Sequence record: SRR31156797_1634
Length of the DNA: 42,567 nucleotides
Direction: 5' to 3' (one strand)
Part shown: positions 19,807 through 23,900 of the stretch, in pieces
How the letters are laid out: every line of letters begins with the position of its first letter
Numbering within the stretch: position 1 is the stretch's first letter
Notes under the pieces: model-generated
What the model saw: the letters and a program-made list of their open reading frames with translations, nothing else
Database searches by the model: none
What the model was told of the DNA's origin: nothing
Made by a program: the position numbers and the translations under genes

Positions 19807-21396
19807 TTATCTCTTCAACTGAATCAATTCGCCTAAAAGCTGATCAGCTGTAGTGATCGCCTTACTATTGGCCTGAAAACCGCGCTGGGTGGTGATCAGC
19901 TTGACCATTTCATCCCCCACATCGACGTTGGATTGCTCCAATTTGTTGGAGGCGATGGACCCCAGCGGGCCTGTTCCGGCACGTCCTGTCAATGCAGGGC
20001 CGGAATCGCGGGTCTTGGAGAAAAGATTTCCCCCTTCGCGGCGCAACCCGTACTGGTTGTTGAAGTTGGCGAGAGTAAGCACATAGAGATCGAGCACCTG
20101 ACCATTGGAATAACGACCGGTGACAACGCCGTCGCGATCGACCTCCACGGCCTGAAGGAACCCCGCTCCGTAACCGTTCTGGGACTGGGAGTTACGGGCA
20201 TTACCGGTATCGTAGGAAGTTGAATAAGAGGCACTCCGTTTGGGAGAACTGAAGTTGGGGACCTTTGCCAAAGTAGTGCCTACGGTAGAGGCATCAGCAG
20301 GTGTCGGGGTGGACCAAGTGGGCGGATTGCTGCCGTTGCTCAAACCGAAATCAAGGGTAATGGGATTAGCTTTAGCGTCAGTAGCAAGGTTGGCATTAGC
20401 CTTTCCAAGGAAATTGGCAGTAAAAATGGGCTTACCGGACTCTGACATAGGCGAGGGAGTCCAGTTATTAAGATTCTGCATCCCCCCTGTGGCACCGCCT
20501 TTGAGAGAGAAGGAACTCATGCCGATCATCTCCCCGCGCGGGTTGAAAGTCATGGTTCCGGTCATGAGCAATCCGGCAGCGGAAGTTGTTTTCAAGGCAG
20601 TACCACCGATTGTCCGGCCATCCTCGTTAGGCGGTACAGTAACGATAAATTCATAAACCCTGTTACCAGCAGCATCAGTGGTAACGGTGTTGTCCTTGAC
20701 CGGGTCAAAATAGATAGTCAGGTCATGGGAGGTTCCGCTTTCATCAAAAGTCTTGATGGTGTTCTGAAAGGCATAGCGGTCTGCCGGAAGGGGCGGATTA
20801 TTTTTCCCGTTCCAAGTTTGATGCAGAGAAAAGAACGGCTGTCCGGCCACGTTGCATTTGTCCTCGGCCTTGGAGCTGAGGTTGACGTTCATAGCAATAT
20901 CGGAGGTACGCACCGGCGGCGACTGAAAACGGTCCAGTTTAATATCTGTGGGAGTACCGATGATGTCCGGTTTACCGCTTTCGGAATTAGGATTGACCTT
21001 CCAGCCCTGCACTACATAGCCGTGAGGATCAGTAAGTACACCCTGCTTGTTGAAGATAAAATTCCCGGCCCGGGTATAATAAGTTGCATCAGTGTCCGGG
21101 TGACGGACGGAGAAAAAGCCCTTGCCGCCAATAGCTACGTTTGTGGCCTCAGACGATGGCTCGAAGGGGCCCTGCTTGAAATCACCGTAGATGGAAGCGA
21201 TGCCGACACCATGGCCGACCTGCCCGAGCCCAGCGCCGGTGTTGACCGCGCTGTAAAAAGCATCTTCAAAAGAAGTACGCGCTCCCTTAAAACCGATGGT
21301 GTTGCCGTTGGCAAGGTTGTTGCCGATAATGCTCATAGCCTGACTGTGAGCACGGATGCCGCTGATACCGTTATACATTGATCCTTTCAAACCCAT
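19807..21396 (-). CDS. flgE: Flagellar hook protein
   Basis: IGNNLANGNTIGFK, YYTRAGNF and LEQSNVD...LITTQRGFQANSK. Confidence 0.95.
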   Translation of the reverse strand: MGLKGSMYNGISGIRAHSQAMSIIGNNLANGNTIGFKGARTSFEDAFYSAVNTGAGLGQVGHGVGIASIYGDFKQGPFEPSSEATNVAIGGKGFFSVRHPDTDATYYTRAGNFIFNKQGVLTDPHGYVVQGWKVNPNSESGKPDIIGTPTDIKLDRFQSPPVRTSDIAMNVNLSSKAEDKCNVAGQPFFSLHQTWNGKNNPPLPADRYAFQNTIKTFDESGTSHDLTIYFDPVKDNTVTTDAAGNRVYEFIVTVPPNEDGRTIGGTALKTTSAAGLLMTGTMTFNPRGEMIGMSSFSLKGGATGGMQNLNNWTPSPMSESGKPIFTANFLGKANANLATDAKANPITLDFGLSNGSNPPTWSTPTPADASTVGTTLAKVPNFSSPKRSASYSTSYDTGNARNSQSQNGYGAGFLQAVEVDRDGVVTGRYSNGQVLDLYVLTLANFNNQYGLRREGGNLFSKTRDSGPALTGRAGTGPLGSIASNKLEQSNVDVGDEMVKLITTQRGFQANSKAITTADQLLGELIQLKR

Positions 21397-21423
21397 GAGA
21401 ATCTCCTTTCGGTAAAAAAATAA

Positions 21424-22086
21424 TTAAGCAACAACTCTTGTCACGTTGGACAAAAGCACCTTGCGGCCATCTTCAAGCTCCAGAATATTTTGGCCACCAG
21501 CCGTATTAACGGCTTTGACCTTTCCGGAGACTTCAATATTGGCGAGAACTTTTTTACCTTTGGGGGATTCCGCACGAACTGCGATCCTGTACTGACCGTC
21601 ATCTGCGGCATTGCCGTCTTTATCGTTACCATCCCATTGAAAATCAAATTTTCCGGCAGCCTTGCTACCCATTTCCACAGAGCGGATCAATCCACCGTCT
21701 TTATCATAAATGTCCACATAAACAGACTTGCAGGCTACAGGGAGGGAGATGTTGGCGGAAGTGATATCCGAACCATCTTTGGCCACACCGAATCCTTTGG
21801 CCATGACTGACTTGCCGATGTAACCGGTAGCGTTAACACCGATCACGGTCTTAACTGTCTCAGTCAGGCCATCCATTGCCTTGGAAATATTGGTGAGTCT
21901 TTCAACGGTAGAAAACTGGGCCAGCTGAGCCAGCTGTTCCTTGTTGTCCATGGGATTGACGGGGTCCTGATTCTTGAGTTGGGTAACAAAAAGTTTCAGG
22001 AAAGCGTCTTTGTTAAGATCCTTACTGGGAGTCTTAGGCTTGGCGTTCTTATTTACATTATTTAAATACGTAGTGGCGTCGATCAT
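21424..22086 (-). CDS. flgD: Flagellar hook cap (scaffolding) protein
   Basis: FLKLFVTQLKNQDPVNPMD...QLAQFS and FQWDG motifs; AGGAGG RBS. Confidence 0.95.
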   Translation of the reverse strand: MIDATTYLNNVNKNAKPKTPSKDLNKDAFLKLFVTQLKNQDPVNPMDNKEQLAQLAQFSTVERLTNISKAMDGLTETVKTVIGVNATGYIGKSVMAKGFGVAKDGSDITSANISLPVACKSVYVDIYDKDGGLIRSVEMGSKAAGKFDFQWDGNDKDGNAADDGQYRIAVRAESPKGKKVLANIEVSGKVKAVNTAGGQNILELEDGRKVLLSNVTRVVA

Positions 22087-22100
22087 GATTTCCTCCTGTT

Positions 22101-22245
22101 CTGCACAACAGCTTGGGTCCGGCGTGAAATACGCAAGACAAGTTGATGCGCCTCAAGGAGGCAATCAGCCTATGAACCGGGATTCGGCATGATCAAGGCA
22201 GGAAAGAAACAGTTGATGAAGGGGTAACTGTTTCCAGCTGTGCAG
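22101..22245 (-). other. Candidate structured RNA leader upstream of flgD
   Basis: Closing stem CTGCACAGCTGG / CCAAGCTGTTGTGCAG with bulges; 9-bp hairpin at 22206-22234; small hairpin GCCTC-CTT-GAGGC at 22150-22162. Confidence 0.4.
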
Positions 22246-22279
22246 ACGTGAGAGGAAGTGGGTTGGGGAGGTCTTTCTA

Positions 22280-22594
22280 TCACGCCATGACCTTGAACTC
22301 CCGGTCATTATCGTTATCTGAATCTTTTTCTTCAACAAGCTCCTTGGCTTTTTCAATGCAGTGTCCGCCGAAAGGGGCGACTACCGCTCCTTGGAGGTTG
22401 CGCCTCATCTCCATGACAGCCTTTCTGCAAGACTGGCACTCAGCAAGATGGGCCTCAAGGCTGCTGACCTGTTCATCGGTAGCAGTTCCGTCGAGATACA
22501 TGCATATCTCATCGATTTCCGGGCAGGCAGGAGTCGGTCCGAAAGGAAGGTCCTTATCCGTGCGGCTGCAACTTTTACGTCCGGTTCCGTCCAT
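22280..22594 (-). CDS. Small soluble zf-HC2 (ZAS) anti-sigma-factor-like protein
   Basis: YLDG...LEAHLAECQSC (HxxxCxxC), no transmembrane segment, directly downstream of an ECF sigma gene, GAGGTG RBS. Confidence 0.82.
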   Translation of the reverse strand: MDGTGRKSCSRTDKDLPFGPTPACPEIDEICMYLDGTATDEQVSSLEAHLAECQSCRKAVMEMRRNLQGAVVAPFGGHCIEKAKELVEEKDSDNDNDREFKVMA

Positions 22595-22667
22595 GGAACA
22601 CCTCGTGTTGTTTTGTCTGCCGATTCATCCATGCACCGACAGGGTTTGCTGTGTCCATTAAATCCAT
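22584..22667 (-). promoter_or_regulatory. Cluster of CsrA/RsmA-type ANGGA sites in the anti-sigma leader
   Basis: Four ATGGA within about 80 nt. Two lie in ANGGAN hexaloops: GTTCC-ATGGAC-GGAAC (22584-22599, contains the start codon) and TGTCGGTGC-ATGGAT-GAATCGGCA (22618-22641). Confidence 0.6.
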
Positions 22668-22689
22668 AAAAAGAATTTAATTTACGACA

Positions 22690-23277
22690 CTAACGGGTCA
22701 GTACATAAGATTCTCCACTGACTCCGTGGTAGGAACGAAGCTTAATCAGGGCCTTATGCTTGGCGCTCCTGACTGACTGTTCCTTGATTCCGATAAAATC
22801 GGAAATTTCTGAAATATCTAGCCCGTCCTCAAAGAAAAGCTTCACAATAAGCTTCTGGCGAGGAGAAAGCAGCTGCTCCGGAATATCCAGTCCTTCCTGA
22901 ACCGGATCTGCAGGAGCCTCAAGTTCGTTAATAAAGTCATCCAAAGGAGCTAAACAATACACCCCCTTGCGCAAAAAATCCATGGTCACACTTCTGGAAA
23001 TGACCATCAGCCAGGTTGTAAGCTTGGCTTTATGTGGATCATATCTTTTTAACAGACTTCTATCATTCTGTACAAGACGCAGGAAAACGTTCTGACAAAT
23101 ATCATCAGCATGATGCGGAGAGTAGAACTTAAGCTTACTCTTTAATGTATTATTGATGGTAAAATAAATTATCCCAGAATATTTTTCCACAAAAGTATTC
23201 CAAGAGGACCTATCACCTTCAGTACACTTTCTGATAATATTTACTATTGCCTTCTGTTCTAAGCTCAAAACAATCAC
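22690..23277 (-). CDS. ECF-family sigma-70 factor
   Basis: Region 2 (ADDICQNVFLRL...LTTWLMVISRSVTMDFLRK) and region 4 (LSPRQKLIVKLFF...SEISDFIGIKEQSVRSAKHKALIKLR). GTG start is uncertain. Confidence 0.88.
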   Translation of the reverse strand: MIVLSLEQKAIVNIIRKCTEGDRSSWNTFVEKYSGIIYFTINNTLKSKLKFYSPHHADDICQNVFLRLVQNDRSLLKRYDPHKAKLTTWLMVISRSVTMDFLRKGVYCLAPLDDFINELEAPADPVQEGLDIPEQLLSPRQKLIVKLFFEDGLDISEISDFIGIKEQSVRSAKHKALIKLRSYHGVSGESYVLTR

Positions 23278-23808
23278 CCGATGTCTTTGTTTAATGCTTC
23301 TTAATACTTTCCCTTCATCATAACAGGCTGATTGCCTCCATGGGCATTCTTACAACTGTATACGCAAGGAAAAACCGAAACATCCCCACCTACTTAATCA
23401 AAACTTGATAAAAACTAATCTTTCTTAATTTAATCAAGTCAAAACAAGACCTTAACGGAAACAACTTTTTTCCATTTTACCGAGGGATAAAGACTCATGT
23501 CCCTTACTCATTAAATCCGGCGCGAGGCTGATTTTTCAAAGTAAGCTCATGCCGTAAATACGAGAAACGTATTTGAACTTGAATGAAATCAAAAAAAGTC
23601 CACGCTGATATTCAAAATTGGCAGGAAAGAAACCTGCCGGATTGGTTGTAAGTCAACTTTATATAACTTTATAAATCATCTCAATAGGCAATATTTTCCG
23701 CACATTATAACACAAGAAGAGCATCAAGCCTTGCACTCAAAAAAGCTCATATCTTCAACAGGTTTAACCCAAACAACATCAAGAAAAAGACTTTATCACC
23801 ACAACTTA

Positions 23809-23837
23809 TTGACAAGATAAGTCGCATGGGGCAATAT
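23809..23837 (+). promoter_or_regulatory. Putative sigma70 promoter of the gal operon
   Basis: TTGACA (23809-23814), 17-bp spacer, CAATAT (23832-23837), immediately followed by LacI-type operators. Confidence 0.55.
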
Positions 23838-23841
23838 TTCC

Positions 23842-23877
23842 GAAAACGTTTGCGGTTACGTTTGCACAATCGTTTGC
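23842..23877 (+). promoter_or_regulatory. Three tandem 12-bp LacI-family operator-like boxes
   Basis: GAAAACGTTTGC / GGTTACGTTTGC / ACAATCGTTTGC; a LacI-family gene lies in the operon. Confidence 0.65.
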
Positions 23878-23900
23878 AGAATTCGGAGCAAAGATCAAAA

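Follow-up and report, generated by a model that had tools for sequence, protein, structure and literature searches.

Complementary blocks in the leaders of an ECF-type sigma gene and of flgD suggest a long-range RNA switch in a flagellar gene cluster

We asked why two pairs of exactly complementary sequence blocks flank a sigma/anti-sigma gene pair just upstream of flgD in a flagellar gene cluster. The locus lies on a 42,567-nucleotide (nt) stretch of DNA from sequence record SRR31156797_1634 (the window, by which we mean this whole stretch), and its relatives identify the host organism as a Maridesulfovibrio. An earlier note on this DNA had reported that GGAGGCAATCAGCCT at 22157-22171 (plus strand) has its exact reverse complement at 23325-23339, and that TGATGAAGGG at 22214-22223 (plus strand) has its own at 23311-23320, in collinear order, the two blocks being 4 nt apart ahead of the sigma gene and 42 nt apart ahead of flgD; all of this was confirmed. 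The best explanation that we can offer, at a probability of about 0.5, is a long-range intramolecular RNA switch that opens the translation of flgD. The features on which this reading turns are the following, where ECF stands for extracytoplasmic function, SD for Shine-Dalgarno sequence, aa for amino acids and bp for base pairs:

23358..23387, minus strand: ECF-type promoter-like motif, made up of GGGGATGTTTC (23387-23377), a 12-nt spacer and CGTATAC (23364-23358)
23325..23339, minus strand: U15, leader block GGAGGCAAUCAGCCU, 20 nt past CGTAT
23311..23320, minus strand: U10, leader block UGAUGAAGGG, with a core GAUGAAGGG that is identical in 16 of 16 sequences of the genus set described below
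22690..23277, minus strand: ECF-type sigma gene (Pfam Sigma70_r2, Sigma70_r4 and Sigma70_r4_2)
22280..22594, minus strand: anti-sigma gene, zf-HC2, 104 aa (Pfam zf-HC2, 29.8 bits against a cut-off of 22.2)
22087..22279, minus strand: structured intercistronic leader of flgD (D region), recognised by fold and conservation
22250..22258, minus strand: pyrimidine box CUUCCUCUC, which pairs with the flgD SD in the consensus fold
22205..22235, minus strand: hairpin presenting D10, with a 10-bp stem (22235-22226 with 22214-22205) and an 11-nt loop
22223-22214, minus strand: D10, block CCCUUCAUCA, complement of U10, in the hairpin loop
22157..22171, minus strand: D15, block AGGCUGAUUGCCUCC, complement of U15
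22092..22096, minus strand: flgD SD, GGAGG
21424..22086, minus strand: flgD, hook cap protein (Pfam), start codon 22086-22084

The 15-nt pair is the longest exact inverted repeat of the window (arms 30-2000 nt apart). Taken by itself this length is only borderline, because 4 of 100 whole-window shuffles reached an inverted repeat of at least 15 nt; when the two regulatory regions (160 x 213 nt) were shuffled, 15 nt was reached in none of 300 cases. We judge the blocks to be real because they are conserved in relatives and have been re-invented with other letters in other genera.

Conservation within the genus was followed in 16 non-redundant sequences (the window, 13 genomes and two metagenome contigs; sigma identity 97-70%), aligned from the promoter to the start of flgD. 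Between the upstream (U) and the downstream (D) blocks 25 pairs were proposed, and 398 of the 400 cells of this table were standard pairs; the two unpaired cells (in L056 and L052) were both at helix ends. Four one-sided changes were seen (one each in L047 and L058, two in L017) and all of them led to G-U, and one compensatory double change, from C-G to U-A, was present in L017. As changes blind to pairing should yield A-C about as often, the exclusive use of G-U fits the pairing of RNA and does not fit identity of DNA. The alignment of orthologous intergenic regions, which the earlier note had put forward as a check, was thus run and the pairing was retained. Invariant columns made up 62% of the leader and 47% of the spacer between the anti-sigma gene and flgD, compared to 14-24% of the third codon positions of the flanking genes, which suggests that the non-coding leader and spacer RNA are under selection.

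Outside the genus, a family-wide search found the flgD-linked sigma gene in 21 of 401 genomes at E <= 1e-80, with the next matches at 7e-61, and the gene order was retained in these 21 genomes; the order-level sample of 401 genomes yielded no new syntenic lineages, and among the kept metagenome loci 5 of 80 were flgD-linked. The sigma proteins of the other genera are only ~38% identical to that of the window, and the non-coding regions of the other Desulfovibrionaceae genera cannot be aligned to those of the window. At the same two positions, complementary words with other letters were found: GAAGACATGCCGGTC in L018 and L027 (0 of 300 shuffles), CGCGAGCAGGC in L019, L020 and L060 (p = 0.003-0.01) and TGCGAGCAGGCCG in L021 and L061 (0 of 300 shuffles for L021), the last of these also in L022 with one G-U and in L063 in a 10-nt version. 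The blocks in these genera are 15, 11 and 13 nt long, and the downstream one lies 76-98 nt upstream of the flgD ATG. Two of these words, CGCGAGCAGGC and TGCGAGCAGGCCG, are related, the first pair being C-G in one and U-A in the other. With a test for exact complementary words, which misses helices that contain G-U, p <= 0.05 was reached by 19 of 25 flgD-linked loci compared to 4 of 70 sigma loci without flgD, the latter being the chance level. At least three unrelated sequence solutions at the same positions are what argues most strongly for selection on the complementarity itself.

Two side observations were made at the compared loci. At two orthologous sigma/anti-sigma loci without flgD, L025 and L026, there are 12-nt complementary words (positions 706 with 2314, and 1412 with 2594; p = 0.005 and 0.01). 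Their leader copies occupy the same position, 37-38 nt ahead of the sigma start, and have different letters; the partner in L026 belongs to a terminator-like hairpin that follows the anti-sigma gene, of which it forms the 3' arm. These words may represent the same principle with a transcriptional output, or chance among 70 loci. In L021, L061 and L022, the downstream block also matches inside flgD (codons 24-28, +70 to +83, up to -22 kcal/mol), and this match in a GC-rich lineage could equally be a further partner or a by-product of G+C content.

The downstream blocks lie in a strongly folded spacer. The 196 nt that lead up to flgD, counted with the anti-sigma stop codon (22087-22282), have a minimum free energy (MFE) of -66.5 kcal/mol compared to -44.7 +/- 4.2 kcal/mol for shuffled sequences (z = -5.25), and none of 200 shuffles folded as well. 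In the consensus fold of the 16 sequences, the pyrimidine box and the flgD SD form an outer helix (alignment columns 28-35 with 197-203) that is paired in 16 of 16 sequences; both of its strands are invariant and therefore provide no covariation, and the same pairing appears in the single-sequence fold. The consensus fold further contains a second helix (CUGCACA with UGUGCAG), two local helices over which D15 is divided (GCCU:AGGC and UGCC:GGCR) and an inner hairpin that shows covariation. The exposure of the 10-nt block in a hairpin loop, described in the earlier note, was borne out, as the 11-nt loop contains 9 of the 10 block letters. In this D10 hairpin four pairs are altered on both sides among the 16 sequences, and its covariation score was reached by 0 of 500 shuffles. 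In these models the flgD SD is predicted to be sequestered in a stable leader fold, which is the arrangement of the rpoS type. A scan of 21900-23900 against Rfam returned just three chance-level matches to eukaryotic families, far under their gathering scores; the spacer is a 196-nt conserved structured RNA absent from Rfam, and we flag it as such.

How could the sigma leader act on this fold? In the mechanism that we propose, one polycistronic minus-strand transcript would begin at the sigma gene's own ECF-type promoter, and the first ~30 nt of this transcript (U15 and U10) would pair with D10 and D15, ~1.1-1.2 kilobases (kb) downstream. D10 would be offered in its hairpin loop, and D10 and D15 would both be held within the 196-nt fold between the anti-sigma gene and flgD. 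The spacer alone would hide the flgD SD; invasion by the 5' leader would break the inner helices and free the ribosome-binding site. Only RNAs with the 5' end made at the sigma promoter would then be licensed for translation of the hook gene and perhaps of the genes that follow.

Folding models of two lineages are consistent with such an opening. In lineage A, that of the window, the predicted probability that the SD is unpaired rose from 0.00-0.01 for the spacer alone to 0.47, 0.59, 0.55 and 0.61 when the leader was present (4 of 4 sequences), and in lineage B (GAAGAC..., two sequences) it rose from 0.00 to 0.41 and 0.20. Shuffled leaders (12 for each of these six sequences) never attained the value of the real one. 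In addition, the MFE fold of the whole 1292-nt 5' segment contained all 15 U15:D15 pairs, and when leader and spacer were co-folded as two separate molecules, the U:D pairing was predicted for each of 11 sequences, at a gain of -6 to -23 kcal/mol.

The mechanism requires that the upstream blocks be transcribed together with flgD. All 16 Maridesulfovibrio-type sequences carry the promoter-like motif without change; ahead of the sigma gene in other genera the corresponding letters are TGGATG(T/A)(T/A)T, ~15 nt and CGTAT, and a GGATGTTT / CGTAT motif was found in all lineages. The motif occurs once in the window, and three times and once in the genomes of two relatives, the sigma locus counted. 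The sigma-side CGTATAC looks like a -10 element, and from the sequence we infer a promoter and a start site there. Since the upstream block starts 8, 12 or 20 nt past CGTAT, depending on the lineage, it probably belongs to the very beginning of the mRNA, from the first few nt up to ~30 nt. Between 23340 and 22087 the minus strand showed no terminator-like site, and the promoter motif was not found a second time before flgD, so that a single transcript is the simplest assumption; among the runs listed for 21300-23900 there was no RNA run. Several candidates for other signals were rejected. A hairpin after the anti-sigma gene was considered as a terminator, and the U-rich tail of this hairpin lacks conservation. 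We also looked before flgD for a promoter of the sigma-54 or sigma-28 type by comparing the aligned spacer by eye with consensus patterns, without a formal scan, and the candidate elements varied in spacing (4-6 nt) or were not retained in L056, L017 and L058. Short upstream open reading frames (ORFs) over the leader blocks are not conserved either: the ATG is missing in L056, and the second candidate is without its first ATG in L047.

The earlier note had also suggested that leader RNA might be targeted to a flgD promoter at CTTGCGTAT, a word present on the minus strand at 22129-22137 and at 23360-23368. This suggestion found no support. The sigma copy is the -10-like element, whereas the flgD copy is not conserved (GCGTAT, GCGCAC, GCGTTT, GCGCGT, GCGCAG and GTGCGG were seen) and is located in a small hairpin with UA/CG covariation. 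Therefore CTTGCGTAT was rejected as a shared promoter.

We also considered direct action on either start region. U15 spans 48-62 nt ahead of the sigma start codon and leaves it uncovered; both leader blocks end at least 34 nt before the sigma start region is reached, and the sigma SD is in neither. Over its first 11 nt, U15 agrees with the flgD initiation region at 10 of 11 positions, which led to the idea that D15 is an anti-SD sequence and U15 its decoy. This idea was rejected: 3-42% of other windows of the same locus paired with D15 as well as the flgD start did, no lineage-specific match was seen, and the best local partner of D15 was the initiation region in 6 of 11 sequences and lay elsewhere in 5 of 11. 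When a segment beginning at D15 was folded, D15 did pair with the start region in 11 of 11 sequences, in a design that favours pairing of the ends, and in full context the probability of D15:start-region pairing ranged from 0.00 to 0.90.

The failure of this simpler form is one of several points that weigh against a switch that opens flgD. Within the genus, 19 of the 25 paired columns never vary, and the covariation score of the U:D pairs is weak, being reached by 24 of 500 shuffles. No convincing pair was found in three syntenic loci (L023, which has a 52-nt spacer, L024 and L039). In the GC-rich lineages C and D the leader changed the predicted probability of an unpaired SD from 0.26 to 0.43, 0.25 to 0.12, 0.08 to 0.03, 0.06 to 0.03 and 0.36 to 0.02, that is, accessibility went up in one of five sequences and down in four. 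If the leader were always on the transcript, the signal that flips the switch would be left unexplained; it is also possible that flgD has a separate promoter downstream of D15. Finally, the transcription start, the co-transcription, the pairing in the cell and the translational output are all things that we infer. We therefore grade the parts of the explanation separately. That the U:D pairing functions as RNA we consider quite likely, and the long-range helix of the 5' end of the sigma-operon mRNA with the flgD leader is probably intramolecular. That the output of the pairing is translational opening, rather than processing or stability, is a tentative view with at best even chances.

A further step would be to see in this pairing a translation licence that is coded by the promoter and acts over more than 1 kb: a 5'-terminal key would dock by a kissing loop into a folded intercistronic lock and so open the translation of a second set of hook and filament-junction genes, and RNAs made by read-through or processing, which lack the key, would stay silent. 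We consider this extension rather doubtful. If it were true, sigma activity would gate the structural genes twice, at transcription and at translation, and the key and the lock could co-evolve freely as a pair, as the three unrelated block sequences across genera suggest.

In the main rival to translational opening, the U:D duplex would enclose the sigma and anti-sigma cistrons as a stalk that serves processing or stability, either as a site of cleavage by an RNase specific for double strands or as a shield of the 5' end. The outcome would be separate sigma/anti-sigma and flgD-fliD mRNAs with unlike lifetimes. This reading, which is compatible with a switch and which we consider unlikely as the full account, draws on the same pairing evidence and on the place of the upstream block, which is the very 5' end in every lineage. 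An opened SD is not required, and the reading thus also suits lineages C and D; stalks cut by RNase III at the flanks of excised RNAs are an established mechanism, as outlined in PMC6582327. However, compared to a classical RNase III site the helices are short (15 + 10 bp with an interruption of 4/42 nt here, 11-15 bp elsewhere), and a stalk leaves unexplained why the downstream sites lie within a fold that buries the SD.

Could the two sides pair as separate molecules? Either flgD would have a promoter of its own, upstream of D10 and D15, and its leader would bind that of the sigma mRNA, or a 3'-derived RNA of the anti-sigma transcript would bind the sigma leader; the two expression units would then be coupled in trans. 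Complementarity cannot tell cis from trans, the presentation of D10 in a loop resembles the kissing initiation of antisense RNAs, and the two-molecule co-folding described above predicts the contact. We nonetheless regard pairing in trans as improbable: the anti-sigma gene is followed by no terminator-like site and by a hairpin with a non-conserved U-rich tail, no conserved promoter-like element was recognised upstream of D10, and the blocks share a strand at a distance of 1.2 kb, over which no separating signal is predicted. The first alternative of the earlier note had offered either long-range pairing or a 3'-derived small RNA that couples sigma and flgD expression. The pairing half is supported by its conservation, its tolerance of G-U, its turnover between genera and the helix in the 1292-nt MFE fold; the small-RNA half is not, as there is no terminator-like site between the blocks.

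More improbable still is that the blocks act as DNA, as inverted operators or as the ends of an invertible segment, which would contain only the sigma and anti-sigma genes. The repeats are exact and inverted with a partly palindromic core (AGGC-N5-GCCT), a partial third copy, AGGCTGATT, is indeed present at 23525-23533, and the crossover sites of a recombinase also have to remain identical to each other. Against inversion, gene order and orientation were constant in every syntenic locus (16 Maridesulfovibrio-type sequences and 12 loci of other genera), and all five one-sided changes, that of L022 included, give G-U, which is a mismatch in DNA. No recombinase was recognised among the ORFs scanned between 14.4 and 27.3 kb, which are flagellar, galactose-related or LacI-like by Pfam or by eye. 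No strand-changing joint at the locus was seen in contigs of four runs including the source run, whose contig spans the region, a weak negative given that contigs drop rare variants. A protein site with the palindromic core is unlikely as well, since two relatives' genomes (G001 and G002) each have the exact 15-mer at these two places and nowhere else, and other genera carry unrelated letters in the same positions. The inversion sites and the protein site that the earlier note had listed are thus both disfavoured.

Chance, or a decaying relic without function (for example, a leader hairpin split by the insertion of the sigma and anti-sigma genes), could appeal to the window-wide shuffles and to the mostly invariant paired columns of the genus, but it is barely credible, because the blocks stay exact over sigma divergence down to ~75-85% identity with third codon positions changing freely, and because three further lineages have other complementary words in their place, with the control loci at chance.

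How does a long-range switch compare with known systems? The rpoS leader hides its SD, and it is opened by DsrA, RprA and ArcZ, which are separate Hfq-dependent small RNAs. The flgD leader resembles it in having a structure that hides the SD and that would be opened by RNA pairing with part of this structure; the models predict such a release for all four sequences of lineage A and both of lineage B, and not for the five of C and D. In contrast to rpoS, the opener here would be the 5' end of the same operon RNA, and in this lineage it would pair with inner helices and not with the anti-SD strand. The locus thus works like the rpoS family and is not a member of it, because the complement is the leader of upstream cistrons on the same strand with no terminator-like site between.

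A closer parallel may be the sigma-B regulon of Bacillus subtilis, in which translation is isoform-specific through long-range mRNA folding (McCormick et al., RNA 2021; PMC8208050). As in the cases outlined there, a sigma promoter would set the 5' sequence that decides whether the ribosome-binding site is buried, and transcription and translation would be co-induced. In the sigma-B cases, however, the promoter omits an inhibitory sequence, whereas here it would add an opener that acts over ~1.2 kb and two cistrons. Moreover, isoforms there come from two promoters, and only one conserved promoter-like motif was detected here. In icaR mRNA of Staphylococcus aureus, the 3' untranslated region pairs with the SD of the same mRNA and represses it (PMC3868564). 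Distant parts of one mRNA pair in both systems, with consequences for translation and for RNase III in the account of icaR; in the present locus, the gene's own SD is not the pairing partner, and the predicted effect is activating and falls on the next downstream gene. The 16S and 23S rRNA stalks summarised in PMC6582327 are also formed by complementary flanks of a 1-3 kb segment that join in an enclosing long-range helix, but those helices are longer and surround stable RNAs, whereas the segment here consists of two protein-coding cistrons and its cleavage is hypothetical.

Long-range folding in bacterial mRNAs has only lately been seen as a common regulator of translation, according to PMC8208050 and the preprint PMC12697547. 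Natural cases with comparative support are few, and the present one would be a clean key and lock pair, with halves that are 1.2 kb apart, conserved, and rewritten at least three times yet still complementary. Its setting is a defined developmental pathway, namely a paralogous set of hook and hook-associated genes under its own sigma/anti-sigma pair. A limited literature search found no prior description of this locus.

The sigma protein has 195 aa, matches the Sigma70 region 2 and region 4 families without any region 3 family (Pfam), and scores 59.6 bits against the NCBIfam sigma70-ECF model (cut-off 42.9). Its region content and small size, and the anti-sigma gene directly behind it, are those of the ECF (group 4) class of sigma-70 factors, and the promoter-like motif ahead of the gene may be the autoregulated promoter, with -35 and -10 elements, that such factors characteristically have. 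It may start at GTG (23277) or at TTG (23268); the GTG is changed to GTA in L055 and L057, the TTG (23268-23266) is invariant in 16 of 16 sequences, and the TTG is the more likely start codon. The anti-sigma gene begins 95 nt downstream of the sigma gene, an arrangement retained in the syntenic loci, and its product has in addition a weak RsrA-like match under the cut-off. The minus-strand cluster runs in the order sigma, anti-sigma, flgD, flgE, flgK, Flagellin_N protein and fliD, and galT lies upstream of the sigma gene in the divergent orientation. The genes downstream of flgD are:

21396-19807, minus strand: flgE (Pfam)
19773-17689, minus strand: flgK (Pfam)
17679-16186, minus strand: Flagellin_N protein (Pfam)
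16173-14431, minus strand: fliD (Pfam)

An ECF sigma factor in a flagellar cluster is also known from Azospirillum brasilense, where RpoE6 is located in a late-gene cluster with flgK, flgL, fliD and a flagellin paralogue (PMC12826043). The likeness lies in an ECF-type sigma gene within a flagellar cluster; compared to the cluster described there, the present one belongs to another phylum and also holds flgD, flgE and a zf-HC2 anti-sigma gene.

The genomes in question carry two or three FlgD paralogues each. In members of the genus without the sigma gene (L137, L139, L140 and L141), the best FlgD homologue is 40-42% identical and comes after an ORF of ~450 aa, from which it is separated by 22 nt in L137, L139 and L140 and by 134 nt in L141, without a long leader; a flgE-like ORF is next after it in L137, L139 and L140. 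As there are multiple FlgD paralogues and the other arrangement of the genus lacks this sigma factor, the cluster of the window is an additional set of hook, junction and cap genes with a sigma/anti-sigma pair of its own. A third module of the genus was also noticed, in which a more distant sigma homologue (E ~1e-19 to 1e-23) comes right before a FlgD-like paralogue (25-30% identity), leaving no space for an anti-sigma gene between them. It was found at four loci:

G003:C1:2295989-2296713, third-module locus
G177:C10:63040-64187, third-module locus
G011:C9:140254-141374, third-module locus
G156:C5:827889-828985, third-module locus

Some smaller repeats and hairpins were noted around the blocks. 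The partial third copy AGGCTGATT lies ~140 nt upstream of the promoter-like motif and, for this reason, probably outside the sigma transcript; some relatives retain it and others have it altered. The 14-nt word GGCAGGAAAGAAAC is repeated exactly, in direct orientation, at 22197-22210 and 23620-23633. Its upstream copy is in a hairpin that is terminator-like on both strands (23618-23640), ~230 nt upstream of the sigma promoter motif, and the repeat may be due to chance because the copy in the flgD leader falls in a stretch that is variable among relatives. Finally, relatives retain in the sigma/anti-sigma spacer a hairpin, CUGYCGG...CCGRCAG, at ~22617-22642 (minus strand), whose letters vary among relatives and which sits just 5' of the invariant anti-sigma ribosome-binding region GAGGUGUUCCAUGG in a spacer that is otherwise variable.

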